Assembly (NCBI GenBank): GCA_030390025.1 | Contig: JASTWF010000034.1 | Coordinates: forward strand, 2,108,001 to 2,172,000 | Direction of reading: 5' to 3' | DNA from: Squalus acanthias | Taxonomy: Eukaryota | DNA length: 64,000 bases | Shown: one piece after another, positions 10,798-45,615 of the stretch | Layout of the letters: each line of letters opens with the position of its first letter | Numbering within the stretch: the stretch's first letter is position 1 | Notes under the pieces: generated by a model | The model's database searches: none | What the model was told of the DNA's origin: nothing | The model's input: only the letters and a program-made list of their open reading frames with translations | Made by a program: the position numbers and the translations under genes

Positions 10798-11575
10798 GGC
10801 CGCTTTAACATTTTTCCAGGCTGCTCTTTGATTGATTGGCTCCCTGCTCCTGTGTGATGTCACTTGGAAACAGGGCCCCGCCCCTGGTTACGGCCCATCA
10901 GTGGGATGTCAGTGTGGGAGGAGCTGGAGTGACAGCTGACACTGGGGGTGAGTTTAGTCCCAATAAACAGGGCAAAGGGCTGAAAGGAACAATTTAATAT
11001 AAATGTCAGTAATTCAAATACACATTAATTGCAAATATAATGAAATTAGATACAAGCCCAGTCACAAAAACAGCCCCACTGTATTCCAGGTACTGGATCT
11101 GGGATTATGATGAATCATTTTTCGATTGACCGTCTCTGGGAGTGAGCAGTATCTCAGGAAGGTGGAGAGAGAGAAGTCGAATCAGCGCCTAACTGACTGG
11201 GACTGGAGAAACGTCGCTGGGTTCACAGAGCAGATCTGGTGGGATCGAGACCCCCGTGTCGGAGACGGGATAAAACGGGAAGCTTCAACAATAATTGGAA
11301 AGGTGAGGAACTTTACTGAGAATTCCACCAGTCCAGGATTTTGCTGAGGTGAGAGTCTAACCAGATACTGGGAGCTGTTCAACATCTGCCATCAGGCTCG
11401 GCCTTGGATGTGGCAAGTTGAGTGGAGCTTCACTCGGAGATAAACCTTGCCCGTACCTCACCCGGGAGTGTTTGACACTGACATGTAGTGAGATGTTTAT
11501 TCCGTATTCACCCCATGCTGCACCCGAGCTGGTTGTGCTTCATTGGGTAGTGTCAAGGGAGCTGTACGCTGCATT
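10798..11575 (+). promoter_or_regulatory. Duplicated cassette, copy 2 (ATTGG, TGATGTCA, GC box, donor at 10948; second-exon acceptor mutated AG>CG at 11131)
   Basis: Direct similarity to 2943-3690 and 16860-17380. Confidence 0.5.
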
Positions 11576-11624
11576 GAACACATGATGTTTCAGAGTTGGA
11601 TGTGTTGATGAACCAAATTGGAGA

Positions 11625-11960
11625 GAACTTTACTCTGTACCTAACCCGTGCTGTACCTGCCCTGGGAGTGTTTGCTGGGGCAGTGTAGAGGGAGCTTTAC
11701 TCTGTAGCTAACGCGTGCTGTCCCTGCCCTGGGAATGTTTGGTGGGACAGTGTAGAGGGAGCTTTACTTTGTCCCTAACCCGTGCTGTACCTGCCCTTGG
11801 AATGTTTGGTGGGGCCGTGTAGAGGGAGCTTTACTTTGTATCTCACCCGTGCTGTACCTGCCCTGGGTCTGTTTGGTGGGGCAGCGTAGAGGCAGCTGAA
11901 CTGTGTATCTAACCCAATGTACCTGCCCTGGAGGTATTTGATGAGAGCTTTACTCTGTAA
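11625..11960 (+). repeat. 67-bp satellite, ~5 units
   Basis: Tandem units visible. Confidence 0.9.
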
Positions 11961-15551: not shown

Positions 15552-16848
15552 GAAACATAGAAGATAGGAGCAGGAGTAGGCCATTCGGCCGCTCGAGCCT
15601 GCTCCGCTATTCAATGTGATCATGGCTGATCATCCAAACTCAGTACCCTGTCCCTGCTTTCTCCCCATATCCCTTGATCCCTTTAGCCTTAAGAAATATA
15701 TCCAACTCCTTCTTGAATATGTTTAATGAATTGGCCTCTGCTGCCTTCTGTGGTAGAGAATTCCACAGGTTCACCAGTCTCTGGGTGAAGAAATTCCTCC
15801 TCATTTCTGTCCTAAATGTCTTACCCCTTATCCTTAGACTGTGACCCCTGGTTCTGGACTCCCCGACCATCGGGAACATCCTTCCTGCATCTAGTCTGTC
15901 CAGTCCTGTTAGAATTTTATAAGTTTCAATGAGATCCCCTCTCATTCTTCTAAACTCCAGCGAGTATAAGCCCAATCGATCCAATCTCTCCTCATACGTC
16001 ATTCCTGCCATCCCAGGTACCAGCCTGGTGAATCTTCGCGGAACTCCTTCAATGGCAAGAACCTCCTTCCTCAGATAAGGCGACGAAAACTGCACACAAT
16101 ACTCAAGATGTGGTCTCACCAAGGCCCTGTACAACTGCAGCAAGACATCCTTGTTCTTGCACTCAAACCCTCGCTCCGAAGGCCAACATTCATTTACCAT
16201 CTTAACCGCCTGCTGCACCTGCATGCTTACCTTCAGCGACTGGTGCACAAGGACACACAGGTCTCGTTGCACTTCCCCTTCTCCCAATCTATTGCCATTC
16301 AGATCATAATCTGCCTTCCTGTTTTTGACACCAAAGTGGATAACCTCGCATTTATCCACGTTATATTGCATCTGCCCTGCTTCTGCCCAATCACCCAACC
16401 TGTCCAAATCATCCTGGAGTTTCTCGGCATCCTCCTCACGGCACACACTCCCACCCAGCTTTGTGTCATCTGCAAAATTGGAGATATTACATCTAGGTCC
16501 CTCGTCTAGATCATTAATATATATTGTGAATAGCTGGGGTCCAAGGACCGATCCCTGCGGTACCCCACCAGTCACTGCCTGCCACTCGGAAAAAGACCCA
16601 TTAATTCTTACTCTCTGCTTTCTGTCTGCCAACCAGTTCTCTATCCAAGTCCATACCTTGCCCCCCAATCCCATGTGCCTTAGCTTTACACGCTAATCTC
16701 TTATGCGGGACCTTATCAAAAGCCTTTTGAAAGTCCAAATACACCACATCCACTGGTTCTCCCTTATCTATTTTACCAGTTGCATCCTCAAAAAATTCCA
16801 GTAGATTAGTCAAACACGATTTACCTTTTGTAAATCCATGTTGACTTT
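15552..16848 (-). mobile_element. CR1 LINE, 5'-truncated (RT to 3' tail)
   Basis: ORFs 16601..16813 ([21 protein letters not shown]) and 15640..16674 ([21 protein letters not shown]); tail at 15552-15640. Confidence 0.95.
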
Positions 16849-18310: not shown

Positions 18311-21300
18311 TCTTCTTCTTAGGCAGTCCCTCGGAAACGAGGATGACTTGCTTCCACACGAAAAATTAGTTCTCAGGTGACTGATGAGTCCAATGCGGGA
18401 CCTACAGTCTCTGTCACAGGTGGGGCAGACGGTGGTTGAAGGGGTGGGTTGTGTGGGGTGCTTGGTTTGACGTGCGCTCCTTACGCTGTTTGCGCTTGTC
18501 TCCCGCTTGCTCCCGGCGAAGAGACTTGAGGTGTTCGGCGCCTTCCCGGATGCTTTTCCTCCACTTTGTGCGGTCTTGGGCCGGGGATTCCCAGGTGTCG
18601 CTGGGGATGTTGCACTTTTTCAAGAAGGCTTTGAGAGTGTCCTTGAAGCGTTTCCTCTGCCCACCTGGGGCTCTCCTGCGGTGCCGGAGCTCCGAGTAGA
18701 GCGCTAATTTTGGAAGTCTCTTATCGGGCATGCGGACGATGTGGCCCGGCCATTGGAGCTGATCGAGCATGGTCAAAGCTTCGATGCTGGGGATGTTGGC
18801 CTGAGCGAGAAGGCTGAGGTTGGTGCGCCTATCCTGCCAATGGATTTGCAGGATCTTGCGGAGGCAGCATTTGTGGTACCTCTCCAGTGCTTTGAGGTAC
18901 CTGCTGTACATGCTCCATGTCTCTGAAGCATACAGGAGGTTGAGTGTCACTACTGCTCTGTAGACCATGAGCTTGGGGCTGGGTTTGAGGTCCAGGTCTT
19001 TAAACATTCTCTTCCTCAGGCGACCGAAGGCTGCACTGGCAAACTGACGGCGGTGTTGGACATTGTCATCGACGTCTCCCCTTGTTGACGGTAGGCTCCC
19101 GAGATATGGAAAGTGGTCCACGTTGTCCAAGGCCTCGTCATGGATTTTGATAATGGGGGAGCAGTACTTGTGGCGGGTTGGGGGAGGACCTTTGTCTTAC
19201 GGATGTTTAGTGTAAGGCCCATGCTCTCGTACGCTTCGTTGAAGATGTTGACGATGGTTTAGAGTTCAACTGCTGAGTGAGCACAGATGCAGGCGTCGTC
19301 TGCATACTGTAATTCGATGACAGAGGATGGAACGACCTATGATCTGGACTGGAGGCGATGGAGTTTGAACAGTTTTTCCATTTGTTCTGTAGATTAGCTC
19401 CACTCCGGCGCAGAGCTTACTGAGGGTGAGATGGAGCATTGCAGCCAGGAAGAACGAGAAGAGCGTTGTTGCGATGACACAGCCTTGCTTGACCCCAGTC
19501 CATACATGAATTGGGTCTCTGGTGGATCTGTTTGTCAGGATTACAGCTTGAATGTCGTCCTGAAGCAGGCGGAGGATGGTGACAAACTTTTGAGGGCAGC
19601 TGAATTTGAGGAGGATACTCCATAATCCCTCACGGTTGATGGTGTCGAAGGCCTTTATGAGGTCAAAGAAGACCATGTACAGCGGTTGGTGCTGTTCCCT
19701 GCATTTCTCTTGTAGTTGACGCGCGGTGAAGATCATGTTCATTGTGCCCCTTAGTGGGCGTAATCCGCATTGCGACTCTGGGAGGAGCTCTTCAGCCACT
19801 GGGAGAAGGCGATTGAGGAGGATTCTTGCGATGACTTTCCCTGTGGCAGACAGCAGGGAGACCGCTCTGTAATTACCACAATCAGACTTGTCACCTTTCT
19901 TGAAGATGGTCACGATTACGGTGTCTCTGAGATCCCCTGGCATGCTCTCCTCCTTCCAAATAAGAGAAATGAGTTCATGTATTCGCGCCAATAGTACTTC
20001 TTCACCATGTTTTAGCGCCTCGGCGGGGATTCCATCTGCTCCTGAGGCCTTGTTGTTCTTCAGTTGTTGGATGGCCTTTTCAACCTCATGCCGGACTGAG
20101 GTTGTGCTGAGGTGGTTGCGGGTAGCATGCTGCGGGATGGAGTTGAGGACACTCGCATCGAAGACAGAGTTTTGGTTAAGGAGATCTTCGAAGTGCTCCT
20201 TCCAGCGGGCACTGTCTGCCTCTCTGTCCTTGATGAGTACCTCTCCATTCTTAGCCCGCAGTGGGGTAGGACCATGGGTGCTTGGGCAGCAGGTGGTCTT
20301 GAATGCGCTAAAGAATCCACGCACGTCGTGGTTGTCGGCTCGCTGCTGGATCTCCTGCGCTTTCTCCACCCACCATCTGTTCTTAGGTCGCAAGTTTTTT
20401 GTTGGACCTCGGCCTTCAATGTCTGCAGAGCTGCTTTCTGGCTCTCGAGTTCTGTTACTGTTTCCAGATCAGCAATGCCTTGCCCTTGCGACTTATTAGC
20501 TCCTGGATCTCCTGGTCGTTCTTGTTGAACCAGTCTTGATTTTTCCTGGTCGAGTGACCGAGCGTCTCTTTGCAGGTGCTGATTATGGAGGCCTTGAGTG
20601 CAGACCAGGCGCCGTGGACACTCTGTGTCTCTGAATCACTGGGAGTCGTCAGGGTGGTTGTGAGGCGCAGGCTGAATAGGGCTTTGTTGGCAGGGTCTTT
20701 GAGTGCTCCAGCGTTGATTTTCCTGCGGCATTGCATCTGTTGCCGCCGCGGTTTTGGGGCTACGTTGATGGAGATGACAGAGCTGATTAGGCAGTGGGCT
20801 GTCCAGCAGTTGTCAGCTCCTGTCGTGGCACAGGTGATGCGGACGTCCTTGCGGTCCCTCGCTCGGGCGATGACGTCGTCCAACAGATACCAGTGCTTGG
20901 AGCGAGGGTGTTGCCATGAAGCCTTGTACTTGTCTCTCTGATGGAACAAGGTGTTGGTTATGACAAGGCCATGTTCTTAGCATTTCGTCAGGAGGAGGGT
21001 ACCATTGGAGTTGGCTTTCCCTACCCCCTCTCTGCCGATCACACCTCCCCAGAGTTCTGTGTCCTTTCCACCTCTGGTGTTGAAGTCGCCAAGGGGGATC
21101 AACTTGTCGCCCATTGGGACTCGGGACAGGGATTGTTCGAGGCTGGAGTAGAATTCCTCTTTGGTCTTGTCTGTGGCTTCCAGTGTTGGGGCGTATGCAC
21201 TGATGACCGTAGCGCACTGGTTCCGGGATAGGTTGTGCCATGAGTGATGAGGCGTTCATTTATTCCACAAGGGGAGTCTATGTCGAAACGTCTGAGATCC

Positions 21301-22297: not shown

Positions 22298-23698
22298 AGG
22301 GAGCTTTATGCTGTATCTAACGTGTACTGTACCTGCCCTGCGAGTGTTGATGGGAAACTGTAGAGGGAGCTTAACTCTGTATCTAACTCTTGTTGTGCCT
22401 GTCCTGGAAGGGTTTGATGGGACAGTATACAGGCAGCTTTACTCTGCATTTAACCCGTATTATACGTTTCATGGGAGTGATTTGATGGGACAGTGTAGAG
22501 GCAGCTTTCATCTGTATCTAATCTGTGCTGCACCTGCCCAGGGAGCGTTTGATGGGACAGAGTAGAGGGAGCTTTAATCTGTATCTAATCCGTGCTGCAC
22601 CTGCCCTGGGAGTGTTTGATTGGACAGTATAGAGGGAGCTTTACTCTGTTTACTCGTGTTCTCCCTGTCCTGGACGGGTTTGATGGGACAGTGTAAAGGG
22701 AGCTTTACTCTATCACACATGGTCTGAATGTGTCCTGGAAGTGTTTGATGGGATAGTGCAGAGGGAGCTTTGCTCTGTTTCTAACTCCCGCTGTACTTGC
22801 CCTGGGAAAGTTTGATGGGACAATGTTGAGGGAGCTTTACTCTGTATCAAACGTGGTCTGAACCTGCCCTGGGAGTGTTTGATGGGACAGTTTAGAGGAA
22901 GCTTTACTCTGCACATTCACTTTCAATGACTCGTGTACAAGGACACCCAGGTCCCTTTGTGCATCTGCGTTCCCCAATCTTTCACCATTTAGGAAATACT
23001 CTGCCTTTCTGTTTTGTCGACCAAACTGGATAACTTCACATTTATCGACATTATATTCCATCTGCCATGTTCACGCCCCTCACTGAGCCCTTTGAGATCC
23101 CCGTGAAGTCTCTTCACAACTGACACTGCCACCTAGCTTTGTATCATCAGCAAATTTGGAAATGTTACATTTAGTCCCCTCATCCAAATCCTTGGTATAG
23201 ATTGTGAATAGCTGGGGCCCAAGCACCGATCCTTGCGGTACACCACTAGTCGCAGCCTGCCATCCTGAAAAAGACCAGTTTTTCCCTACTCTTTGTTTTC
23301 TGACTGTTAACCAATTCTCAAACCATGCTAGTATATTACCCCCAATTCCATGTGCCCTCATTTTGTTCACCAACCTCTTGTGTGGGACCTTATTGAAGGT
23401 CTTATGAAAATCCAGATACACCACATCTACCGGTTCTCCTTTGTCTACTCCACTAGTTACATCCTCAAAGAACTCCAATATGTTTGTCAAACAGGATTTC
23501 CCAATCATAAATCCATGTTGACTCTGCCCAATCTTACTATTAGTTTCTAAGTGCCCAGTTATTGCATCCTTTATAATAGATTCCAGCATTTTCCCAACTA
23601 CTGATCTACCTGCGCTAGGAATGTATGATGGGACATTGTAGAGGGAGCTTTACTCTTTATCTAACCCGTGCTTTACCTGCCCTGGGAGTGTTTGATGG
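22297..23698 (+). repeat. 67-bp satellite array, interrupted by a CR1 fragment (22910-23605)
   Basis: Tandem units on both sides of the CR1 piece; the array resumes at 32339 after the Penelope/Tx1 insertion. Confidence 0.9.
22910..23605 (-). mobile_element. CR1 internal RT fragment
   Basis: ORFs 23080..23589 ([29 protein letters not shown]) and 22837..23061. Confidence 0.92.
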
Positions 23699-24787
23699 TG
23701 CGGAGATGCCGGTGTTGGACAGGCGTGGACAAAATTGAGAGGTCGCACAACACCAGGTTATAGTCCAACAGTTTTATTTGAAATCACAAGCTTTCGGAGC
23801 TGCTGACTGAGGAGCAGCAGAAGCAGCAGCAGAGTGGTGGTCTCTGTGGCCAGGAAGAGGAGAAGGAGAAGGAGACCAGACAGCAGACCACCACCACCAA
23901 CCAACACATCCACAACTGAGGTGCCTGGAGAGAGAGGACAGGAGAGGAGAAAGAAAAGAAAAGAAGGCCAAGGCCATTAACAACAGAGGAGAGGCCTTTC
24001 CACACTGCCTCCTCAATTGGCCTCCATTTTAGGAGAGGGAGAGAGGGGAGAAAACAACACAACATCCATCATCTGTTTGGAAGGAGGAAGGAAGAACATC
24101 TACAGGTGGGTGTGATTCTGGGGCACTCTCCCAGAGACTTTGTTTTGTAGGTGGGGGGAGGAAAGAAGAAAAAAAAGAAGGCCGGAACATCCAAGGGGTG
24201 TGTGTGTGTGTGTGTGTGTGTGGCTTCTGTAAAAGCTAGGCCGCACACACCATATTAAACACCCCTTTCCCATTGCCTGACCTGGGACAGCTGGAGCTGC
24301 CTAGGTGAAGTTCCCCAATTAATTTAATCTTATTGGGCATCGTTAAGATCTGGTGCAGGACTGAGCCTGGGCATCTCCAGCTATCCCAGGTGAAGACATC
24401 TTCTCCCCCCACCAGAAGACCACCACCAAAGACTTTTATTACATCGGAGAGTGCACCCCCCCTGCCAACACCCACCCACCCACCATCCTGAGTGGCGACC
24501 CTGCCCTTGCGGCTTCCCTCCTTCCCACCCCCTCTCTCTCTCTCTTTGTCTCTTGTGTCTCTCTCTGCCTCTCTCTCTAAGAGGCACCTCAATTTACTTT
24601 TTATTAAGTACCCATTGAGCAGAGGGCAGAAGGCCCCTCTCCTAATTAATTCATAAAAAGGGAGAGGTGTGCCTTCAATTTAAGAGCTCCCTCTGCTCAG
24701 GGGAAAACAAAAACAAAAAACCAGAGGCCATTAACACCTTCAGGCCTGTGACTTGGGGTGAGTGTAGCCCTTAAAGACCCGTCCATT

Positions 24788-26943
24788 ATGGCGAGCACAT
24801 CTTCGTCGGTGGCGGGGGCAGCGAGGACGTATGCGAGCGTGGCAGCCGCGGCCACGGCCGCAGCCACGAGTCCTCCTGTTACCCCGTCACCTTTTACCCT
24901 CCTTACGAGGAAGAATGGGGTCAAGAGCTACACTCACCCCAACATGACTATAGAGGCGTGTGTTAAAGCCATGGCTGGGGTTGTCGGCCCTTCAGCCATC
25001 GTCGCCGCCTCTAAAATGTACGGCAAGGCTGTGTTCTTCCTGGGGTCGGAGCGGGCGGTGTCCCTGGCCATCGAGAAGGGGCTCACCGTGGGCGGGACCT
25101 TCCTGCCGGTGGACCCCCTTGAGGCCACCGCGCAAAGGATTGTGGTTTCCAACGTCCCGCCCTTTGTTCCGGGTGAGCTCCTCCTCCCCCACCTACGCCA
25201 ACTGGGGGAGGTGAGGTCGGGGATCACACCCATCCCGCTCGGCTTCCGGGAAGCCAGCCTTCGGCACGTCTTCTCCTTCCGGCGCCAGCTTTTCGTCCGG
25301 CTGGCGCGGGAGGAGGACGCGGACGGTGCGTTCACGGTGCTCCACGGGGGGACCGCCCACCGCGTCTTCTGGACCTCGGACGGCGTGCGGTGCTATGCCT
25401 GTAAGGAGGTGGGGCACGTCCGCAAAAACTGCCCCGCCTCCAAGGCCGCCACGACACCTAGCGCGGCCAGGGCTGGCGCCGCCGCCCCCCCTCCCCCTGA
25501 TACTGTCCGCGCATCGAAGACCACGCATGCGCGGTCGAAATCGGAGGCCAACACCATCACGGCCTCCGGCGGGGGGGAGGGAGAGCATCCGAGGGGAAGG
25601 AAGGCGCGTAGAAGAAATAAACACCTAAGGGCGGGTCCCCTCGTGGAGGAAACATCCGAGTTGACCGAACTCACGCCCGAGTACATCGCGGAGTTGATCG
25701 GGACGCATGAGACTGGGGGGGTCCTCGTGCCCGGGCCCGTGACCATGACCGCATCTGCCAAGGCAGCTGAATCAAGACCTGCGGCCGGGCTCGGGCCCGA
25801 GGGGCCCAAGAAACCCAGTCGTCGGAAGGGGGCAGAGAGGGAGGCCCCAGCAGACATGGAGGCCTCCCCCTCTCCGGGCCCCAATATGTTAAAAAGGAAG
25901 CTCGACCCCCCAGGAGGAGGACTGCGAGGAGGAAGGTCCCTCTGCAGAAGGGGAGTCATCGCCCGCCTCGGGTGCTGCGCCCCACCCCACCACCGTCATC
26001 GTCGCGCGCGAGCGGCAGGGGTCGCCTGTCCCTCGGGAGGGTGAGACAGCCGAGTCTGTCCGACCTGTGCCTCCCGGGGATGGGGAAGAGACCCTGCCCG
26101 TGGGGGGGGGCGCGGAACAACCCGCGGAGGGAAATGTAGTTCCGGAACCGTTGCTCCTCGCCGGATCGGGCGTCCTGGGGACTGGGGCGGGCGAGGCCAA
26201 AGAGGCTGAAGCCGAGCACGCCTTTTATAACCCAGATATCTCCCAGGGACTGCTCGACCTGGTGGAGGAGTATAACAATCCCCAGCCCGCTGGGTCGGAG
26301 GTTGGTGGCGGGGAGACAGAAAGCCCCCTGACTCCGTCTCTGATGTTGGCGCCGGACGTACTGGAGGAATTTGAGATTATTTTCTCCCCGGTTTCTCCGG
26401 TCGCTCCGGCGCCTGAGGCGGGGGGGGGGGCCCGAACCGCCGCCGCCTCCCGGCCCGGCGCCCCTGAAGGAGCCCAGGGTGGACTCCTCTGCCACCGATC
26501 CTGGGGGTGGGATCGTGACGGAGGCGGGGCTGGCCGGTGCGGCCGAGCCGTTCGCTGCACCCCGTGTGACGGACGGGTTGGCCGCCGGTGACGACCTCCC
26601 GGAGGAGGACGGGGACTCGGTGTTGGGCACCGAGGATGATTTGGAGTCCATCAGCAGCGAGGCGATGGACGCCCTCGTACCCTTCACCGACTCTCCCCTC
26701 ATCCCCGTAGGGGAACTCTGGGATTTTATGGCCATGAGCCAGGGTCGTCACAAGAAGATCCGGCTGGCCCTCGACAAGTGGTCGGAGCTGGCGCTGCTCG
26801 TCGTGTCCGTCCGCGCCGCCGTTAAAATCATGGGCGCGGACAAGGACGTTGGTCGGCTCGAGCTGCGTCGGCTCAAGAGTTTCCACACTGGGCTGCTGAG
26901 GGAGTGGCGGTCGTCAGTGACCGCGCTCCCTCCCCTCCGTTAG
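24788..26943 (+). pseudogene. Tx1 ORF1 (gag-like RNA-binding protein), broken by two frameshifts
   Basis: ATG at 24788; LTRKNGVK..IEACVKAMAGVVGPSAIVAASKMYGKAVFFL, VSNVPPF, FSFRRQ and knuckle CYACKEVGHVRKNC. The reading frame continues via ORFs 26067..26591 and 26371..26943, with shifts near the C6 run (25906-25911) and G11 run (26420-26430). Confidence 0.85.
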
Positions 26944-26968
26944 GTAGAGGTTGCACTATGCTTCTGAG

Positions 26969-29900
26969 ATGAAGATAACCATAGCCAGCCTCAACATCAA
27001 CGGCAGCAGGGAGGCGCGCCGTAGATTCAATAATTTCTCGGTCCTTCGGGACGGGAAATATGCGGTGTGTTTCCTGCAAGAAACCCACACTGTTCCGGGA
27101 GACGAGGCCACGTGGCTCCTGGAGTGGCAAGGAGGGGTCAGCATGAGTCACCTCTCTAACAATTCCTGCGGGGTGGCTGTCTTGCTGGCCCCGCATTTTC
27201 AGCCGGAGATCTTGAGGGTCAAGGAGCACGTGCCGGGCCGCTTGCTCCAGGTCACTGTTCGCCTGGGAGGCGTGCCGCTCCATTTAGTGAACGTGTACGC
27301 CCCCCGGACCGGTGCGCAGCAAGTGCGCTTCTTCGGAGAAGTGTCCGCTCTTCTGGGCTCCATCGACGTGGGCGAGTGCGTCATCCTCGGGGGGGATTTC
27401 AATTGTACCCTCGAGGCGCGGGACCGGTCGGGTCCCCCGCGAAGCCCGGCGGCGATGGAGAAGTTGCGGGACCTGGTCGGGTCCTTCGACTTGGTGGACG
27501 TCTGGCGAAATCTCCATCCCGACTCCAGCGCCTTCACGAGCGTGAGGTCTGGAGGAGGAAGGTCCAGAATCGACCACCTTTACATTTCCCGGGCGTACGT
27601 CTCCTGCGTTCCGGCGGCTTCCATGCGGCCGGTGCCGTGCACGGACCACCACCTGGTGTGGGCGGAGCTCGCTCCGCTGCGCGCGCGGGGGGGGTCCGCG
27701 TACTGGCATTTTAACAACCTGCTGCTGGAGGACGCGCGGTTCCGGGATTCGTTTCGCCGGTTCTGGGCCGACTGGAGAAGGAAGCGGGGAGGCTTCCCCT
27801 CCTTGAGGCTATGGTGGGACGTGGGCAAGGCTCACGTCCGCGTCTTCTGTCAGGAGTACGCGAAGGGGTCGACCAAGAGGCGGGAGGCCCTGGTCGGGCG
27901 ATTGGAGAAAGAAGTGCTCGACCTGGAGTCCCGTCTCGGTCAAGTCGTCGAGGACCCGGCCCTGCGGAAGGTGTACGAAGAGAAGAAGGGCGCACTGAAG
28001 GACCTGCAGCTGGTCGGGTCCCGAGGCACGTACGTGAGGTCGCGGATCCAGTTCCTGCGGGACCTGGACCGCGGCTCCCCCTTCTTCTACTCGCTGGAAA
28101 AAAGACGGGGGGTCCGTAAGCAGCTCTTGGGGCTGCTGGCCGACGACGGATCTCTGGTCTCGGATCCGGAGGGCATCAGCGCGGAGGCCCGGGCCTATTA
28201 CGGGGCTCTGTTCTCTTCGGATCCGTCCAGCAAGGATGCGCGCAGAGTTTTGTGGGAGGACCTGCCGAAGGTCGGCCCGGAGGGCGCCGAGAATTTAGAA
28301 GCTCCGCTAAGCCTGGCGGAGCTGACCGGCGCCCTGCGCCAGCTCTCGAGGGGCAAGTCCCCGGGGCTGGACGGGCTGACCGTGGAGTTCCACAGGGCGT
28401 TCTGGGACGTCTTGGGGGACGACTACGCGCGGGTCCTGGGGGAAAGTCTGGCGACCGGGGAGATGCCCCTCTCTTGGCGCAGGGCGGTCATCGTCCTGCT
28501 GCCCAAGAAGGGCGATCTCCGCCTACTTAAGAACTGGCGCTCGGTCTCCCTCCTCAGCACGGACTACAAAATTTTCGCCAGGGCTATGTCTGCTCGCCTT
28601 GGCACCGTGCTGGCCCGCATGATCCACCCCGACCAGTCCTACACGGTCCCGGGCCGGAGTATCCACGATAACATCCATCTGGTCCGGGACCTGATCCACC
28701 ATTCCCAGAGGGCTGGTCTGTCGGTCGCCTTCCTTTCCCTGGATCAGGAGAAGGTGTTCGACAGGGTGGATCACGAGTATCTTTTCGGGACTCTGCGCGC
28801 ATTCGGGTTCGGGACGCATTTCGTCGCCCGGATCCGACTTCTGTACGCCGCCGCGGAGTGTCTCATTAAAGTTAACGGGTCTTTGACGGCGCCCCTTCGC
28901 TTCGGGAGGGGGGTGCGTCAGGGATGCCCCATGTCCGGTCAGTTATACGCCGTTTGCGTGGAGCCTTTCCTGCGCCTCTTGCGGAAGAGGTTGACGGGAC
29001 TGGCTCTGCAAGGGCCGGGCGTGGAGGTGGTCCTCTCGGCTTACGCCGATGACGTGCTCCTCGCGGTCACGGATCCCGTCGACTTGCGGAGGATGCGAGA
29101 ATGCCAGCAGATTTACTCGGACGCATCCTCCGCCAAGATCAACTGGGAGAAATGTTCTGGACTCCTGGTGGGCCCATGGCAGGTGGACTCCCTGCCGGAG
29201 GAGTTCGGGCCTTTCGCCTGGAGCACCACGCACCTCCTCTACCTGGGAGTCTACCTCAGCCCGGCCGAGGACGCCTGGCCGGCGAACTGGCAAGAGCTGG
29301 AGGCCAAAGTCACCGCTCGCCTAGGGCGCTGGACAGGACTGCTCCGAGTGTTGTCCTACAGGGGTCGAGCGCTGGTCATAAACCAGCTGGTGGCCGCCAT
29401 GTTGTGGTACCGGTTGGTCACTTTGATCCCTCCCCCTGCGTTTGTCGCCAAGATGCAGAAGAAGCTCGTCGACTTCTTCTGGGACAAAAGGAAGCACTGG
29501 GTCTCTGCCGCGGTTTTGAGTCTCCCGCTTAGGGAGGGCGGTCAGGCGCTGGTGTGCCTTCGCACCCAGGCGGCGACTTTCCGTCTTCAGACGCTGCAGA
29601 GATACCTGTACGTGGAGAATCCTCCTAGGTGGCGTGCGCTGGCGACGTATTTCTTCCGCCAGCTGCACGGCCTCAATTACGACACGCAGCTCCTGTTTGT
29701 GAGAGTGGGTGGCACGCGTGCCAGCCTGCGGGAGCTGCCTGTCTTCTACCAGGAACTGCTATGGGTTTGGAACAGCGTCGCCTCCGAGCGCAGTTCTCCC
29801 CCGTCTGGAGTGGCGGCCGTCCTTCGGGAGCCGCTGTTCAGGAATCCGCACCTCCACGACCGCGGGTTCGGCTGGCTGGCGGAGGGCAGGGCTGTGCCCG

Positions 29901-30868
29901 GTAAGGTGACCAGAGTCGGGGACCTGCTCGATGGCGGAGGAGCGGGCTGGATGGCGCCGGAGGAGTTGGCGAGGCGCATGTCCTGGGTCAACGTCCGGCT
30001 CGCGGTCAAAACCATCGAGTCGCTAAAAGTGGCACTGGGCCCCGTCTCCACTAGGTGTGTCGAGGAGGCTCAGGCACGTGGGGCGATCCCGTCCGAACTG
30101 ACCCCCGTTCGGACGGAATTCCTTATCGGCGCCCGGCCCCGAATCCTCCCTCGGGAGCCGCCGCCTCACCACTTGAGCCTTCTCGGAGAAATGCCCTCCG
30201 TGCCCTTTCAATCCGCACGGAGGCGTTTCCTGTACGGGCTGCTCCTGCACACTCTCCACTTTGCCATCTTCGTCTGCCGTCCGGACACGCCTTGGCGTAC
30301 CATCCTGCTGTCCGGCGGAGGCGAAGGTCCCCATTGGAAGGCTCTCTACGCGGGAGTCTTCCCTTGTTCTATTGGGGACTTGGCCTGGAGGGTGTTGCAC
30401 GGAGCAGTCCCGTGCAATAGGATTTTAAGTAGGTTTACGGACTCCCAGGCTGCTTGCCATTTCTGCGGCCTGGAGGAGTCCGTCTATCACATTTATATTG
30501 AGTGTGAGAGGTTGCAGCCCCTCTTTCATTATTTGAAGGGGCTGCTCCTCAATTTCTGGTTGCACTTCAGCCCCACGCTCCTGATCTACGGTCACCCGGT
30601 GCGGAGGGGAGCGGGTAGGTCGGAGGACCTCCTCGTAGGACTGCTCCTGGGCCTGGCCAAGAAAGCCATTAATTGGTCCAGGCAGCGGGCGGTCGAGGGG
30701 GTCGTTCGGCCCGATTGCCTGCCTCTCTTCCGCGGCCATGTTCGCGCCCGGGTGGCCCTGGAGATGGAGCACGCGGTGTCCGCCGGCACGCTTGAGTTTT
30801 TCCGCGACCGGTGGGCGCCGCGTGGGCTGGAGTGCATCGTCACCCCGGACTTCCAAATTTTGATTTGA
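26969..30868 (+). CDS. Tx1 ORF2: APE endonuclease, reverse transcriptase and C-terminal zinc finger (1299 aa from the ATG)
   Basis: Uninterrupted ORF with SLNING, FLQETH, NVYAP, GGDFN, SRIDH and TDH (APE); KSPGLDGL, DQEKVFDRV, GVRQGCPMS, YADDV and YLGV (RT); CHFCGLEESVYHIYIEC. Confidence 0.97.
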   Translation: MKITIASLNINGSREARRRFNNFSVLRDGKYAVCFLQETHTVPGDEATWLLEWQGGVSMSHLSNNSCGVAVLLAPHFQPEILRVKEHVPGRLLQVTVRLGGVPLHLVNVYAPRTGAQQVRFFGEVSALLGSIDVGECVILGGDFNCTLEARDRSGPPRSPAAMEKLRDLVGSFDLVDVWRNLHPDSSAFTSVRSGGGRSRIDHLYISRAYVSCVPAASMRPVPCTDHHLVWAELAPLRARGGSAYWHFNNLLLEDARFRDSFRRFWADWRRKRGGFPSLRLWWDVGKAHVRVFCQEYAKGSTKRREALVGRLEKEVLDLESRLGQVVEDPALRKVYEEKKGALKDLQLVGSRGTYVRSRIQFLRDLDRGSPFFYSLEKRRGVRKQLLGLLADDGSLVSDPEGISAEARAYYGALFSSDPSSKDARRVLWEDLPKVGPEGAENLEAPLSLAELTGALRQLSRGKSPGLDGLTVEFHRAFWDVLGDDYARVLGESLATGEMPLSWRRAVIVLLPKKGDLRLLKNWRSVSLLSTDYKIFARAMSARLGTVLARMIHPDQSYTVPGRSIHDNIHLVRDLIHHSQRAGLSVAFLSLDQEKVFDRVDHEYLFGTLRAFGFGTHFVARIRLLYAAAECLIKVNGSLTAPLRFGRGVRQGCPMSGQLYAVCVEPFLRLLRKRLTGLALQGPGVEVVLSAYADDVLLAVTDPVDLRRMRECQQIYSDASSAKINWEKCSGLLVGPWQVDSLPEEFGPFAWSTTHLLYLGVYLSPAEDAWPANWQELEAKVTARLGRWTGLLRVLSYRGRALVINQLVAAMLWYRLVTLIPPPAFVAKMQKKLVDFFWDKRKHWVSAAVLSLPLREGGQALVCLRTQAATFRLQTLQRYLYVENPPRWRALATYFFRQLHGLNYDTQLLFVRVGGTRASLRELPVFYQELLWVWNSVASERSSPPSGVAAVLREPLFRNPHLHDRGFGWLAEGRAVPGKVTRVGDLLDGGGAGWMAPEELARRMSWVNVRLAVKTIESLKVALGPVSTRCVEEAQARGAIPSELTPVRTEFLIGARPRILPREPPPHHLSLLGEMPSVPFQSARRRFLYGLLLHTLHFAIFVCRPDTPWRTILLSGGGEGPHWKALYAGVFPCSIGDLAWRVLHGAVPCNRILSRFTDSQAACHFCGLEESVYHIYIECERLQPLFHYLKGLLLNFWLHFSPTLLIYGHPVRRGAGRSEDLLVGLLLGLAKKAINWSRQRAVEGVVRPDCLPLFRGHVRARVALEMEHAVSAGTLEFFRDRWAPRGLECIVTPDFQILI

Positions 30869-30971
30869 TTTATTAAGTTTCATTTAAAGTTTTAATTGAT
30901 TTACAGTAAATTTTGATTTGTCCAACCAAAAAGAGCAACACCAGGTTATAGTCCAACAGTTTTATTTGAAA

Positions 30972-31010
30972 TCACAAGCTTTCGGAGCTTACTACTCCTT
31001 CGTCGGGTGA
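30972..31010 (-). ncRNA. Minimal type I hammerhead ribozyme motif in the inverted Penelope pseudo-LTR
   Basis: Exact reverse complement of 32253-32291. Confidence 0.65.
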
Positions 31011-32252
31011 AGTAAAGAGATACAGAATCGCCAAAGCATATATAGATAGAGAACAATGCATGTGTACCTTACAATTGCAGACAACTAAATTAAATCATCC
31101 TGACTGTTTATCTGCCGAGGTGTGATAAAGTTAATCAGGTCAGCCAGGAAGGTACCACATCAAAGACATAGCAAGATACAACTGAGACAATGAGGTGGAG
31201 TCGCAGGGGGTCTAACGTGTCAAAAGCTGCCGTCTGTATGTAAAACGATAAGCTTTAAAATTTTTACTTTTTTACTGGGAATCACATCTGTGAACAAGCC
31301 AACGAAGACTCGAGTCCGGATCACGTCATGTATCGTGACATAAACAACGCCATGTTCTTCGCAGCCTTCAACATGTCATCGATGACGACAAACACCTCGC
31401 TAAGGCCATCCCCACGCCTCCACTACTTGCCTTCAAACAGCCGCCTAACCTCAAGTACCATCGTTCGCAGCAAATTACCCAGCTTTCAGGATAACAGCGA
31501 CCACGACACCACACAACCCTGCCACGGCAAACTCTGCAAGACATGCCAGATCATCAACACAGATACCACCATCACACGTGAGGACACTACCCACCAGGTA
31601 CATGGTACATACTCATGTGACTCGGCCAACGTTGTCTACCTCATACGTTGCAGGAAAGAATGCACCGCGGCATGGTACATCGGCGAGACCATGCAGACAC
31701 TGAGACAACGTATGAACGAGCACCGCGCAACAATCGCCAGGCAGGATTGTTACCTCCCACTCGGGGAACACTTCAGCAGTCAAGGACATTCAGCCTCGGA
31801 TCTGCGGGTAAGCGTTCTCCAAGGCGACCTTAGGAACACACGACAACGCAAAATCATCGAGCAGAAACTGATAGCCAAGTGTCGCACTCATGAAGACGGT
31901 CTCAACCGGGATCTTGGGTTTATGTCACGATACATGACGTGATCCGGACTCGAGTCTTCGTTGGCTTGTTCACAGATGTGATTCCCAGTAAAAAAGTAAA
32001 AATTTTAAAGCTTATCGTTTTACATACAGACGGCAGCTTTTGACACGTTAGACCTCCTGCGACTCCACCTCATTGTCTCAGTTGTATCTTGCTATGTCTT
32101 TGATGTGGTACCTTCCTGGCTGACCTGATTAACTTTATCACACCTCGGCAGATAAACAGTCAGGATGATTTAATTTAGTTGTCTGCAATTGTAAGGTACA
32201 CATGCATTGTTCTCTATCTATATATGCTTTGGCGATTCTGTATCTCTTTACT

Positions 32253-32291
32253 TCACCCGACGAAGGAGTAGTAAGCTCCGAAAGCTTGTGA
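32253..32291 (+). ncRNA. Minimal type I hammerhead ribozyme motif in the Penelope 3' pseudo-LTR
   Basis: TCAC-CCGACGA-A-GGAG-tagtaag-CTCC-GAAA-GCTT-GTGA: stem I TCAC/GTGA, stem II GGAG/CTCC, GAAA box and palindromic AGCT in place of stem III. The core reads CCGACGA instead of canonical CUGANGA. Confidence 0.7.
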
Positions 32292-32338
32292 TTTCAAATA
32301 AAACTGTTGGACTATAACCTGGTGTTGTGCGACCTCTC

Positions 32339-33345
32339 AGTGTTTGATGGGACAGTGTAGAAGCAGCTTTACACTGTATCAAACGTGGTCTGAACCTGCC
32401 CTGGTAGTGTTTGATGGGACAGTGTAGAGGCAGCTTTACTCTGCATCTAATACAAGCTGTACCTGCCCCGGGAGCATTTGATGGGACATTGTAGAGGGAG
32501 CTTTACTCTGTGTCTAACCTGTGCTGTACCTGCAGTGGGAGTGTTTGATGCGACAGTGTGGAGAGAGCTTTACTCTATCTAACGCGTGCTGTAACTGCCC
32601 TGAGGGTTTGATGGGACATTGTAGAGGGAGCTTTACTCTGTATCGAACCCGTGCTGTACCTGTCCTGGGAGTGATTTGATGGGATAGTGTAGAGGGAGAT
32701 TTACTCTTTATCTAATCCTGCTTTAACTGCCTTGGGAGTGTTTGATGGGTTAGTGCAGAGGGAGCTTTACTCTGTATGAAACATCGTCTGAACCTGCCCT
32801 GTGGGTGTTTGATGGGACAGTGTAGAGGAGTTTTACTCTGTATCTAACCCGTGCTGTACCTGCCCTGGGAGTGTTTGATGAGACAGTGTAAAGGGAGCTT
32901 TACTCGGCATCTAACCCGTATTACACGTGTCCTGGGAGTGAGTTGATGGGATAGTGTAGAGGGAATTTTACTCTGTATCTAACCCATGCTGTACATGCCC
33001 TGGGAGAGTTTGATGGGACAGTGTAGAGGGAGCTTTACTCTGTATCTAACCCATGGTGTTCCTGCCCTGGGAGTGTTTGATGGGACCTTGTAGAGGGAGC
33101 TTTACTCTGTATCAAGCTTGGTCTGAACCTTCCCTGAGAGTGTTTGATGAGACAGTTTAGTGACAGCTTTACTCTGAATTCAACACATGCTGTACCTGCC
33201 CTGGGTGTGTTTGATGGGACATTGTAGAGGAAGCTTTACTCTGTTTCTAACCCGTGCTGTTCCTGCCCTGGGAATGTTTGATGGGACGTTGTTGCTGGGG
33301 CTTTACTCTGTATCTAAACCATGCTATACCTGCCCTGGAGTGTTT
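32339..33345 (+). repeat. 67-bp satellite array, ~15 units
   Basis: Tandem units visible. Confidence 0.95.
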
Positions 33346-33892
33346 ATAGAGTTATACAGCACAGAAAGAGGCCCTTCGGCCCATCCTGTCTACACCGGCC
33401 ATCAAGCCCTGTCTATTCCAATCCCATTTTCCAGCACTTGGTCCGTAGCCTTGTATGCTATGGCGTTTCAAGTGCTCATCTAAATGCTTCTTGAATGTTG
33501 TGAGCGTTCCCGCCTCTACCACCCTTTAAGGGAGTGAGCTCCAGATTTCAACCACTCTCTGGGTGAAAATGTTTTGCCTCAAATCCCCTCTAAACCTCCT
33601 GCCCCTTACCTTGAAACTATGCTCCTAGTTATTGACCCCTTTACGAAGGGAATTATTTCCTTTTTATCCACCCTAGCTATGCCCCTCATAATTTTGTACA
33701 CCTCAATCAGTTACCCCCTCAGCCTTCTCTGCTCTAAGGAAAACAACCCCATCCTGTCCAGTCTCTCTTCACAGCTGAAATGCTCCAGCCCAGGTAACAT
33801 CCTGGTGAATCTCCTCTCCACCCTCTCCAATGCAATCACATCCCTCCTATAGTGTGGCGACCAGAACTGCACATAGTATTCCAGCTGTGGCC

Positions 33893-39603: not shown

Positions 39604-40733
39604 TCATTGACTCTTCCCCTTTGACTTGAGGTACTCCATAAAGTCCCTTCTATTCTCCAGACTGAGATAAGCACCCTGTGTCTGGTCCACGTCTCCTTTC
39701 TTCTGCCAGCAGTTGTGACTCTGGTGTCCTAGCTTACCACAATAGTCACATGCCCCTTTCTTTCCAGTCCTGCAATCATTTGCCATATGTCCCACTTTTC
39801 CACAACTATAACAGCTCCCCTGAATCCTCTTGTACGGTTGCGATGCCCCCCCTGCTGCTACCCTTTCCTGTTTAATTTTAACACCTCCCTTTTCGGTGGG
39901 TTCAGAGTCCTTCGCATCTATCTGACTTGCCCATTGAACTGCGAGATCATACGTAGGGGCAATCAACACTCCTAATTTTAGGCGTTGTGGATTTGCTTGC
40001 CCTGATGATTCGCAATAAGCGTCATCCCACATTTCCTCTGGATTTCTCCAGAACTCTGCGTTCTGGCTACGGGGTTTCAGGGTTCCCAAATCTTTGAGAA
40101 TGGCTTGTTTTTCAAGAGGCGTGAAAGCCCGGTATTGATCTTGTGCTGCCCCCTGGTGTCGTAATACGGATGCCATCGGTACTGCCGGTACGTCCCCTTT
40201 AATTTCGATTGGGGCCGAGGCATACGGTGGGGGCTTTTCTTTATCCTCATCATTTCTGTTTCCTCTATCTGTCAATTCCATCCGTTTTATTGTTCTTTCT
40301 AATTCGGCTATTTTCTTTTCTTGTTCTTCCATCTTACTAGTTTGTGTCGTAATCTTTTCTGTTAACATTATTAACTGATGTGTTAAAATTACTCAAGCCT
40401 TTCTAGTTTTCTTTTGTTTCTGCTCCTCCCACCACTCCCATTGCGCCAGGGATTTTCCTAATGGATCCCACCCATCTTTCCTCATTTTATCAATCAAACC
40501 CTTTTGGTCCTCGGCGTAGAGCCGACTCATGGGGCCCCAATCGGGTTCCTCACCTTTCTCCATAATGTATTAATATCGTTACTAGCTTACCGCTCTCCGG
40601 CCCACCCTAGCAACTCGTTTTCAGAGGTCTGCCTATCATCCACCATAAGTATGGTGGCGGCCCCGACTTGGAACAATCTTGCTCACAGAGGTGAGTTTTG
40701 GGCAGCCACTTGGCCCCTTTCACATGTAGCCAT
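39604..40733 (-). pseudogene. gag: gag remnant: coiled coil, PPPY late domain, deleted capsid, two CCHC knuckles
   Basis: ORF 39604..40368 has KMEEQEKKIAELERTIKRM, KPPPYAS, CYSCGKVGHMANDC and CDYCGKLGHQSHNC. The probable ATG at 40733 is followed by stops. Confidence 0.9.
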
Positions 40734-41778: not shown

Positions 41779-42931
41779 GGCCTAACCAGCGTTTTGTACA
41801 ACTCCATCATAACCTACCTGCTCTTATCTTCTATGCCTCGGCTAATGAAGGCAAGTATCCAATATGCCTTTTTAACCACCTTATCTACCTGTCCTGCTGC
41901 CTTCAGGGATCTATGTACATGCACGCCAAGGTCCCTCTGATCCTCTGTCCTTCCTAGGGTCCTACCATTCATTGTGTATTCCCTTGCCTTGTTTGTCCTC
42001 CCAAAATGCATCACCTCACACTTTTCAGTGTTAAATTCCATTTGCCACTGTTCTGCCCATCTAACCATCCCGCCTATATCGTCCTGTAGTCTGAGGCTTC
42101 CCTCCTCGCTATTTACCACTCCACCAATTTTCGTGTCATCTGTGAACTTACATTCATATCTAAATCATTAATGTAAACTACAAACAGCAAAGGAGCCAGC
42201 ACCGATCCCTGCGGTACACCACTGGCCACAGGCTTCCAGTCACAAAAACAACCTTCGACCATCACCATCTGCCTCCTGCCACTAAGCCAATTTTGAATCC
42301 AATGTGCCAAATTGCCCTGGATCCCATGGCCTCTTACCTTCTTGACCAGTCTCCCATGTGGGACTTTATCAAAAGCCTTACTGAAGATCATGTAGACGAC
42401 ATCAACTGCACTATCCTCATCCACACACCTAGTCACCCCCTCAAAAAATTCTATCAAATTGGTTAGAAATGATCTCCCCCTGACAAAGCCATGCTGACTA
42501 ACCCTGATTAATCCTTGCCTCTCCAAGTGGAGACTAATTCTGTCCCTCAGAATTTTTTCCATTAATTTCCCTATCACTGATGTTAGGCTCACTGGCCTGT
42601 AATTCCCTGGTTTATCCCTACTACACTTCTTGAACAATGGTACTACGTTAGCTGTTCTCCAGTCCTCTGGCACCTCCCCTGTGGTCAGAGAGGTTCTGAA
42701 AATGTGTGTCTTGTGTCGCAGCCCCTGCAGTCACCCCGCTTGCCTCACACAGCAGCCTGATATACATCCCGTCAGGGCCTGGGGATTTATCCTCTTTTAA
42801 GCCCGCTAAAACCGCTAGTACCTCCTCCCTCTCAATACTAATTTGTTCAAGTATATCACAATCCCCTTGCCTGACTTCTATGCCTACATCGTCCTTCTCC
42901 ACAGTTAACACAGATGCAAAATATTCATTTC

Positions 42932-45085
42932 CGAGCTTTACTCTGGACCAAACATTGTCTGAACCTGCCCTGGGATTTTTTGATTGGACAGTTTAGAGAG
43001 TTTTTCTCTGTATCTAACCCGTGCTGTACCTGCCCTGAGAGTGTTTGATGTTACATTGTAGAGGAAGGTTCACTCTGTATCTACCCTGTGCTTTACCTGC
43101 CCTGGGAGAGTTTGATGGGACAGTGTAAACGGATCTTTAATCTGTATCTAATCTATGCTGCACCTGCTTTGGGAGTGTTTGATGGGCCAGTGTTGATGCA
43201 ACTTTACTTTGTGTCTAACTCGTGTTGTGCCTGTCTTGGAAGGGTTTGATGGGACACTGTAGAGGCAGCTTTAGTCTGTATCTAACACATGCTGTACCTG
43301 CTCTGGGAGAGTTTAATGGGATAGTGTCGAGGGAGTTTTAATCTGTTTTACTCGTGTTCTGCATGTCCTGGATGGGTTTAATGGGACAGTGTAGAGAGAG
43401 CTTTACTCTATCAAGCGTGGTTTGAATCTGCCCTGGGAGTGTTTTCCTGGGACTGTTCAGAGGGAGATTTACTCTATCTAACCTGTTTTGAACCTGCCCA
43501 GGCAGTGTTTGATGGGACAGTGTAGAGGGATCTTTACTCTGTATCAAACGTGGTCTGAACCTGCCATGGGAGTGTTTGATGGGACAGTGTAGAGGGATCT
43601 TTACTCTGTATCAAACGTGGTCTGAACCTGCCATGGGAGTGTTTGATGGAACAGTGTAGAGGGAGCTTTACTCTGTATCGAACCGGTGCTGTCCCTACCC
43701 TGGGGTTGTTTGATGGGACAGTGTAGAGGCAGCTTTACTCTGTATCTAACCCATGCTGTACATGCCCTGGGGGTGTTTGATGGGACAGTGTAGAGGGAGC
43801 TTTACTCTGTACCTAACCCGTGCTGTACCTGCCCCGGGAGTGTTTGATGGGACAGTGCAGAGGGAGCTTTACTCTGTATCTAACCCATGCTGTACCTGCC
43901 CTGGGAGTGTTAAATTGGACAGTGTTGATGCAGCTTTACTCTCTCTGTCGAACTCGTGTTCTGCCTGTCCTGGACGGGTTTGATGGAACAGTGTATAGGG
44001 AGTTTTACTCTGTATCTTAAGCGTGCTGTACCTGCCATGGGGATGTTTGATGGGATATTGTAGAGGGAGCTTTACTCTGTATCTAACCTATGCTGTTCCT
44101 GCCCTGGGAGAGTTTGATGAGACAGTTTAGAGGGAGCTTTACTCTGTATCTACACATGCTTTACCTGCCCTGGGAGTGTTTGATGGGACAGTGTAGTGAG
44201 AGCTTTACTCTTTACCAATCATTGTTTGAACCTGCCCTGGGAGTGCTGGATGGGACAATGTAGAGGGAGATTTACTCTGTATCTAACCAGTGCTGTACCT
44301 GCCCTGGCCGTGTTTGATGGGACAGTGTAGAGGGAGCTCTAAACTGTATCAAACATGATCTGAACCTGCCAGGGGAGTGTTTGATGGGACAATGCAGAGA
44401 TGAAATTTACACTGTATCTAACCTGTGCTGTACCTGCCCTGAGAGTTTAATGGGACACTGTAGAGGGAACTTTACTCTGTGTCAAACATATTCTGAAGCT
44501 CCTGTGGGAGTGTTTGATGAGATAGTGTAGAGTGAGATTTACTCTGTATCTAACCTGTGCTGAAACTGCCCTGGGTTGATTTGATGGGACATTGAAGAGG
44601 GCGCTTAACTCTGTAGCTAAATCGTGTTGTGCCTGTCCTGGGAGAGTTTGAGGGGAAAGTCTAGAGTCAGCATTACCAGTATAAAACATGGTCTCAACCT
44701 GTCCTGGGAGTGTTTCATGGGACAGTGAAGAGGGAACTTTACTCTGCATCTAACCCGTGTTATACGTGTCCTGGGAGCGATTTGATGGAATAGTGTAGAG
44801 GGAACTTTACTGTGTATCTAAATCGTGCTGTACCTACTCTGGGAGTGTTTGATGGGACATTGTAGAGGGAGCTTTACTCTGTATCTAACCTACGCTGCAC
44901 CTGCCCTGGCAGTGTTTGATTTGACAGTGTAGAGGGAGCTTTACTCTGTATCTAACCCGTGCTGTACCTGTCCTGGGAGTGTTTGATGGGACAGTGTAGA
45001 GGGATCTTTGCTCTGTATCTAACGCGTGTTGTGCCTGTCCTGGACAGGTTTGATGGAACAGTGTAGAGGAAGGTTTACTCTGTGT
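42932..45085 (+). repeat. 67-bp satellite array, ~32 units; a few more units at ~45615-45810
   Basis: Tandem units visible, with recurring variants (AAACGTGGTCTGAA and CTCGTGTTGTGCCTGTC types). Confidence 0.97.
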
Positions 45086-45615
45086 CAAATGGTATGTGGG
45101 CGTTCATTGCAAGAGGATTTGAGTACAGGAGCAAGAATGTCTTACTGCAGTTATACAGGGCCTTGGTGAGACCACACCTGGTGTACTGTGTGCTGTTTTG
45201 GTCTCCCTACCTAAGAAAGGATATACTTGCCACAGATGGAGTGCAGCGAAGGTTCACCAGACTGATTCCTGGGAGGATAGGACTGTCGTTTTAGGAGAGG
45301 TTGGGTCGACTAGGCCTGTACTCACTAGAGATTAGAAGAAGGAGTGGGCATCTGATTGAAACGTATAAAATTCTGACAGTGCGAGAAAGGCTGGATACAG
45401 GGAGGATGTTTCCCCTGGCTGGGGTGTCTAGAACGAGGGGTCACAGTCTCAGGATACGGGATAGGTCATTTAGAACTGAGATGAGGCGAAATATCTTCAC
45501 TCGGAGGGTGTTGACCCTGTGAAATTCTCTACCACAGAGGCTATGGAGTCCAAATCACTGAATATATTTATGAAGGAGATATAGATTTCTAGACACAGGC
45601 TCGAAAGGCCGAATG
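45086..45615 (+). mobile_element. CR1 3' fragment
   Basis: ORFs 45082..45294 (LYRALVRPHL) and 45301..45522. Confidence 0.9.

Follow-up and report, generated by a model that had tools for sequence, protein, structure and literature searches.

A young Tx1 retrotransposon family in Squalus acanthias is specific for one base of a Penelope-like terminal repeat

The locus and its two nested retroelements

The 64,000-nt stretch of Squalus acanthias DNA analyzed here, referred to as the window (contig JASTWF010000034.1, positions 2,108,001-2,172,000, forward strand), carries a 7.1-kb Tx1 long interspersed nuclear element (LINE) at about 23748 to 30936, nested in a terminal repeat of a Penelope-like retroelement. 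The family to which this copy belongs is target-specific for that terminal repeat at one base. All copy counts below, and all data on 5′ heads and arrays, come from one assembly only. The features of the two elements, in window coordinates, are as follows:

23687..23698, + strand: 12-bp duplication produced by the Penelope-like element, left copy; lies within a 67-bp satellite
23699..23747, − strand: tail belonging to the antisense arm of the Penelope terminal repeat, preceding Tx1
23748..23763, + strand: 5′ copy of the true target-site duplication, ~15-16 bp, beginning CAACAC, as judged from 14-16-bp duplications in truncated and short-head copies
23764..23801, + strand: head derived from the antisense terminal repeat and likely element-borne, matching the local target in this copy
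23802..24787, + strand: Tx1 5′ untranslated region (UTR), starting with a fold-back remnant of the sense hammerhead, then an (AGC)n run
24788..26943, + strand: open reading frame 1 (ORF1) with a CCHC zinc knuckle, frameshifted; open for 418 amino acids (aa) to 26044, against 718 aa in intact copies
26969..30868, + strand: ORF2, 1299 aa, with APE endonuclease, reverse transcriptase (RT) and C-terminal zinc finger (zf-RVT), from the open frame and domain matches
30869..30936, + strand: 3′ UTR without poly(A), ending AAAAAGAG and a further base, which is C or G depending on the copy, ahead of AACAC
30936..31345, − strand: remaining antisense terminal-repeat arm, with the 3′ duplication copy at 30936-30951 and the antisense hammerhead at 30972-31010
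31259..31942, + strand: 3′ fragment of a Penelope-like ORF (GIY-YIG; 21.2 bits, E 4e-4, just below the 22.6 cut-off)
31918..32338, + strand: sense terminal repeat, with a minimal hammerhead motif at 32253-32291 and an empty target site at 32312-32327
32339..32350, + strand: right copy of the Penelope 12-bp duplication

The Penelope-like copy is a fold-back whose arms (30936-31345 and 31918-32327) are 100% complementary, and the 12-bp duplication encloses the whole fold-back unit including Tx1. Together with the GIY-YIG fragment, these features confirm the first-pass annotation, which had placed the Tx1 inside an inverted Penelope pseudo-long terminal repeat (pseudo-LTR). Judged by its sequence, the target is a Penelope-like element with one ORF encoding RT plus a GIY-YIG domain at the C-terminus, a pseudo-LTR with tail and a minimal type I hammerhead; the latter two are described for Penelope-like elements in PMC4209133 and PMC11167929. 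The RT domain scores above cut-off in a longer copy (L283), with which the window fragment shares its C-terminus. A search for a tail ending at the Penelope start codon ran into unrelated flanks at 12 loci, possibly except L294.

Hammerhead motif matches in the studied loci numbered 128, of which 120 have a CUGA core. Among 44 distinct motifs, the stem I pair covaries (C-G in 26, T-A in 14, G-U in 1, unpaired in 3), the changes being compensatory in 40 of 44. The window motif instead has a CCGA core (32257-32263), as do 8 of the 128 motifs, which represent a Penelope subfamily; this subfamily nonetheless has many 99%-identical copies. An Rfam scan of the window at E≤1 returned no hammerhead or other match, and the motif is a predicted ribozyme only. 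A cis hammerhead on the Tx1 strand was sought by eye as well as in that scan, and none was found.

Many Penelope copies are tiny perfect palindromes with arms 80-200 bp apart and one full and one clipped tail (L131-L160 and among the listed matches of the target 16-mer). Tx1 was found in either arm of such palindromes and, facing, in both arms at G000 C2:164.56 Mb and 164.78 Mb (L201-L203) and at L213. The C2 pair consists of inverted duplicates that differ by 37 element substitutions and by 5 more across ~2.6 kb of flank. A fourth copy of the target 16-mer in the window, at 47598, is empty and lies in another Penelope remnant.

By domains and similarity rather than by a tree, the inserted element is assigned to the Tx1 clade of non-LTR retrotransposons. 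The best named full-length relative of its ORF2 is that of Xenopus Tx1 (YTX2_XENLA), with 647 of 1299 residues identical (50%), a score of 1378 bits against 280 bits for human L1, and aligned catalytic residues; partial matches at 69-74% occur in a ray and a horn shark. The uninterrupted 1299-aa ORF2 reported in the first-pass annotation is borne out, with its endonuclease, RT and zf-RVT domains, whereas the description of the copy as intact, meaning both ORFs open with conserved motifs, is not. The window copy is not intact because ORF1 is frameshifted by 1-bp indels near 25954 and 26420, halting at 418 aa instead of the 716-718 aa of open copies, and because ORF2 carries 10 private residues absent from all 32 other open copies, three of them in conserved motifs (R203H, P525S, A596V). 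The zf-CCHC match lies at ORF1 residues 201-216 both in the window copy and in a 718-aa copy. Among 53 full-length copies, ORF1 reaches at least 680 aa in 21, and both ORFs are open in 15.

ORF2 divergence among copies is 0.5%, and shared ORF2 variants comprise 24 synonymous to 9 replacement changes versus 35:76 among singletons (p 4e-5). This variation points to recent activity under purifying selection in a young family of ~1,100 copies. Sister Tx1 families, 76-95% identical, were encountered at L082, L091, L092, L219, L228 and L267; they end AAAAGAG followed by TACAC, not CAACAC, and occupy other sites. Some sister copies sit within the 5′ UTR or the end of the targeted family, and their endonucleases differ at a few residues.

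Target specificity and the cut site

In whole-genome exact-match counts of Tx1 3′ ends running into AACAC, 1,040 of 1,128 continue CAGG, which corresponds to one terminal-repeat site. A flank-blind pattern matched 954 Tx1 3′ ends; among the 89 listed, up to C4:109.6 Mb, 81 were on target, and two of the remaining eight entered variant targets. A BLAST-type search with the 3′ end yielded 1,264 candidates, of which 40 were scored and the best 30 extracted with flanks: 23 of these 30 enter the same terminal-repeat base, and all 30 continue AACAC. The 5′ ends were preceded by terminal-repeat sequence in 30/30 best-matching and 30/30 position-ordered copies. Known duplicate loci (L010-L012, L007/L014, L201/L203) were noted, with L203 removed ahead of counting, and L226 is a chance pattern match without Tx1. 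The possibility that the matches are segmental duplicates of one insertion was rejected, as they lie on many contigs and their outer flanks differ. Under the definition of Kojima, by which a LINE is sequence-specific when >20% of its flanks fall in one sequence type (PMC4494074), the family is target-specific for the Penelope terminal repeat at one base.

Target-site duplications locate the cut. Truncated copies have 14-16-bp duplications from CAACAC on target (L076, L106, L110, L122) and duplications of the same length off target (L061, L064, L066, L219, L222, L223, L224). Off-target outliers are L065 (11-15 bp) and L128 (~12 bp, imperfect). Several other truncated copies (L062, L112, L114, L220, L221, L225) have no duplication. 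Base +1 of the duplication is C in the 5′ copy and C or G at the 3′ junction; it is therefore taken to be supplied by the element, with the nick right after it. On the Penelope sense strand, the nick thus likely falls at GTGTT^G. The predicted hammerhead cleavage site lies 39 nt 5′ of it, and the ribozyme itself is not the cut site. None of the 3′ junctions read has a poly(A) tail, which suggests pairing between a read-through RNA and the nicked strand, a mechanism already put forward for R1 (PMC2718515).

These results bear on the proposal of the first-pass annotation that the family targets the Penelope ribozyme or pseudo-LTR. The terminal repeat is indeed hit at the predicted junction, which recurs in the 3′ flanks of the source genome; neither unrelated flanks nor copies of a single locus account for the pattern. 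The ribozyme part of that proposal falls with the position of the nick.

Arrays, mosaic copies and the 5′ head

Full-length insertion is confined to the target. Exact 5′ markers number 820 versus 1,128 3′ ends. Among the first 100 on-target ends, 59 could be matched to a 5′ marker, compared with 0/8 off-target ends in the position-ordered sample (p 0.0013) and 0/13 across all off-target events (p 3e-5). All 13 off-target events are truncated, none exceeding 2.3 kb.

Tx1 copies also accumulate next to one another, 24 of 68 5′ ends following another Tx1 copy head to tail. Across five arrays, 7 of 14 adjacent full-length pairs have a common 5′ tract of at least 400 nt versus 0/666 solitary pairs, and no adjacent pair has the 3′ part alone in common; one further adjacent pair differs at 20 sites only, mostly at the 3′ end. 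Among seven arrays of truncated copies, six have a truncation point and private junction that recur from unit to unit, together with differing 3′ ends (on C3, three units with three ends; on C2, six units; L065; L106/107; L109/110; L219), L121/122 being the exception. Among 38 solitary copies, non-CpG variants >100 nt apart show an r² of 0.07-0.11, with all four gametes in 72-83% of pairs. CpG hotspots were considered as the source of these four-gamete violations and rejected, since 121 non-CpG sites give the same result. The copies are mosaic, and the simplest reading is that new cDNA starts on the incoming RNA and then switches to the DNA of a neighboring copy. Such a switch would uncouple heads from bodies.

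Several observations weigh against this reading. Six of the 14 adjacent pairs have neither end in common beyond the head, one of the seven pairs with a common 5′ tract is a near-whole duplicate, and the three pairs from array a68 are not independent. Among eight partial neighbor pairs, only L085 and L198 are near-identical over 1.7 kb, and L090 for 314 nt. The truncation bias, for its part, could stem from poor second-strand cutting off target.

The strongest competitor, although an unlikely one, accepts the targeting as real and attributes heads, mosaics and array polarity to ordinary gene conversion and unequal exchange after insertion. This alternative would explain the lack of linkage between head type and body, the decay of linkage within 100-300 nt and the occurrence of whole-copy duplicates (a68_1 and a68_3 differ at 5 sites, a132_1 and a132_2 at 7). 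Random conversion, however, lacks polarity, whereas the observed tracts are 5′-anchored and never involve the 3′ end alone; the new 3′ ends are often foreign to the array, and head mismatches begin exactly where the duplication stops.

Assembly or polishing artefacts in near-identical repeats could likewise produce mosaic patterns and head mismatches, and the evidence comes from assembled sequence, in which linkage decays on a read-length scale and many copies have 1-bp frameshifts. This explanation is nevertheless improbable, given that long haplotypes are kept (13 differences between a105_1 and a105_2, 2 over the whole copy between L081 and L095, and 37 spread evenly between L201 and L203), that heads often have minority variants and that shared variants show purifying selection.

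The 5′ end of the window copy invites a different view of the insertion. Both 54-mers are identical in the window, which misled the first reading: the first-pass annotation had the 5′ junction in stem II of the antisense hammerhead, implying that the endonuclease cuts the ribozyme region and that the 54-bp repeat is a true duplication with its second cut in stem II. The sequence does switch at 23801/23802, inside stem II, and the junction is fixed. This is not the insertion point, however, as the same junction recurs in 413 places regardless of the local target, and the true duplications span 14-16 bp. In the 29 copies that have a long head and no second Tx1 on the 3′ side (a set that omits L192, which has no motif, L198, with another Tx1 on its 3′ side, and short-head copies), heads are identical to the local target at positions 2-46 in 7 and different in 22. 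With L195 left out, mismatches number 1 at positions 2-16 versus 52 at positions 17-46 (p 1e-8). With mismatches almost entirely beyond position 16, with duplications of 14-16 bp in truncated and short-head copies alike, and with at least four different junctions, the 54-bp repeat was rejected as a true target duplication, and a cut in the ribozyme region becomes very improbable.

The remaining comparisons favor a head that travels with the element. At eight loci (L199, L216, L087, L093, L207, L214, L083, L078), the sister arm of the Penelope fold-back matches the 3′ target rather than the head at diagnostic positions, and the outer Penelope duplication of 9-15 bp is still present. That duplication was readable at 20 loci (only 7 bp at L092; L087 and L209 lie in repeats and were judged by eye), and inter-locus crossover as the source of head mismatch was rejected where it could be read. 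At L195 and L217, a long head is joined to a target that is too short to be its source. Heads are ≤16 nt in about one seventh of cases and 45-54 nt in the others. Short-head 5′ ends consist of 16 bp followed by an old leader common to a sister family with another target (4/30; 80 exact matches; L228, L267), and 12 of 29 short heads have G at position 12 compared with 0/136 non-head sites. Long-head junctions of at least four kinds were found in 97 distinct 5′ ends; the two commonest, with 413 occurrences, resemble Penelope fold-backs in which antisense turns to sense hammerhead (L078). Target sequence was therefore captured several times, and it likely travels with the element. A truncated Tx1 at L075 has, on its 5′ side, a folded-back terminal-repeat piece whose variant is unlike the local target.

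Other data speak against a head carried in this way. Head type is unclustered on a tree of 56 5′ regions (26 changes against a shuffled mean of 27.4, with 138/500 shuffles as low) and lacks linkage to the nearest variants, which contradicts simple parent-to-daughter inheritance of heads except under very frequent recombination; this 5′ UTR tree does not support head type as a heritable marker of clades. In L204, L205 and L068, private variants of the target appear on both sides as far as position ~20, so that more is supplied by the target in some cases. Moreover, later deletion could have shortened the targets of L195 and L217, and the upstream tail of L093 disagrees with its sister arm.

Finally, a weak preference for CAACAC combined with the abundance of the target is a negligible contender: all 30 best 3′ ends start AACAC, including the seven off target, and the target 16-mer has 105,451 exact genome copies (~1% filled), but sequence alone would place ~4% (CAACAC) or ~14% (ACAACAC) of ends on target, according to an estimate based on 376 kb of strand, with the best 8-mer reaching at most 43% (small counts), instead of the 91-92% observed. 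A further CAACACC, which the same Penelope element has on its other strand and which is present at 8/30 empty sites, received 8 Tx1 ends versus 1,040. Target abundance is therefore not the explanation.

Insertion model and comparison with known systems

The best explanation, to which we assign a probability of about 0.8, is a young Tx1 family inserting at one base of the Penelope terminal repeat, antisense to it, through an annealing-type mechanism with switching to neighboring copies. Direct observations are the target site, the length of the duplication, the mismatches between head and target, the bias in truncation, the polarity of arrays and the mosaic make-up of copies; cleavage, transcript ends and the strand switch are steps reconstructed from genomic junctions. 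Initially, a read-through RNA without poly(A) would end 3′ in AACAC, with which the nicked end would pair so as to prime reverse transcription, and the other strand would be cut 14-16 bp away. If the RNA starts inside a target, a full-length cDNA would end in a copy of the target, anneal to the cut end and finish the insertion; off target there would be nothing to anneal, and only truncated copies would survive. Each insertion would recreate the site, allowing arrays to grow. Beside a resident copy, the cDNA may often switch to the resident DNA and take its 5′ part from there, generating mosaic copies.

A broader proposition, which we advance tentatively and at somewhat less than even odds, is that a dispersed vertebrate LINE uses base-pairing at the two ends of its RNA, with a captured piece of another retroelement, both to find its site and to finish insertion, and routinely completes copies from resident neighbors. 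If so, about a thousand scattered copies would act as one recombining population in which aborted insertions are rescued to full length, and the junctions would provide genomic evidence for a strand-invasion route to 5′ junctions in APE-type LINEs, for which 5′ junction formation is called open (PMC6895275).

Parts of this pattern are already published, namely Tx1 targeting of piggyBac, Mariner, Harbinger and LTR elements (PMC4494074) and carried target sequence with arrays in R1 and R2. Xenopus laevis Tx1L, the best named full-length ORF2 match, shares the two-ORF layout and a mobile-element target, being inserted in the piggyBac-type element Tx1D (PMC4494074); it differs in that the target here is a Penelope-like retroelement. 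The crocodilian families Tx1-Mar, Tx1-8_Crp, Tx1-4_AMi, Tx1-9_AMi and SINEU prefer Mariner, LTR-retrotransposon or Harbinger targets, and the 5′ end of SINEU-2B is extended by sequence of its Mariner target in opposite orientation, for which co-transcription was suggested (Kojima 2015, PMC4494074). These families are old (85-87% to consensus) and were called specific at >20%, in contrast to 91-92% at one base here. The text of PMC4494074 contains 0 mentions of Penelope or shark, and no Penelope-like element was found as a Tx1 target in the literature searched, with Repbase and subscription journals outside its scope.

Drosophila R1 is likewise an APE-type site-specific LINE with a 14-bp duplication and tandem arrays formed via re-insertion (PMC2718515). 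Its 3′ read-through was proposed to anneal to the nicked strand, and the 5′ target sequence on melanogaster-type transcripts was also proposed to anneal (Stage and Eickbush 2009, PMC2718515). R1, however, has a co-transcribed ribosomal DNA home and carries sequence from upstream of its site, whereas the head here extends from the site 30-40 nt downstream, and little recombination is reported among its subfamilies (PMC2718515). In R2Bm, 27 nt of target on the RNA 5′ end are noted as required for full-length insertion via strand invasion (Khadgi et al. 2019, PMC6895275), a requirement that on-target-only full length here resembles, although R2 uses a restriction-like endonuclease and its own hepatitis delta virus-like ribozyme, and no ribozyme was found in the Tx1 strand here by Rfam scan or by eye. 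A strand switch to neighboring DNA was proposed for L1 templated insertions (bioRxiv 10.1101/2024.08.27.596794); those are rare and <250 bp, while here switching is apparently routine and extends up to kilobases. By analogy, R1/R2-like annealing of new DNA to target or neighbor fits the pattern.

About a thousand young insertions, precise to a single base, are available from this family in a polymorphic target, with the sister arm as a built-in control from which the strand supplying each 5′-junction base can be read. An APE endonuclease with close sister families ending in a different motif is also useful for studying specificity change.

Near-identical element sequence occurred in sequencing runs of seven organism codes plus one unlabelled; 18 of the 24 listed runs hold at least half of the element's words, and four cover 30/30 element bins. 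The 3′ junction is clearly bridged by contigs of coded organism A only, those of organism B reaching 19 letters past it, weakly, against a bridging rule of 31 letters. In raw reads, ~6% of each run, organism I yielded the Penelope repeat only and organism J nothing. RNA runs were examined as contigs, their RNA status being a guess, and did not demonstrate Tx1 expression or transcript ends.

Elsewhere in the window, five other LINE fragments lie at 59624-62185 (+), 18414-20468 (−), 15640-16692 (−), 51291-52166 (+) and 39604-40392 (−), comprising an ORF of 853 aa with endonuclease and RT, three fragments of RT and an ORF with a zinc knuckle. The 67-bp satellite recurs in several blocks, together with 27-, 30-, 31-, 32- and 54-bp minisatellites (5500-7600, 11500-11900, 22300-22900, 32340-33400, 42900-45800). 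Among these repeats, a 309-aa single-exon ORF at 54329-55255 (−) matches 7tm_1 (E 3e-19) and represents a putative rhodopsin-family receptor gene.

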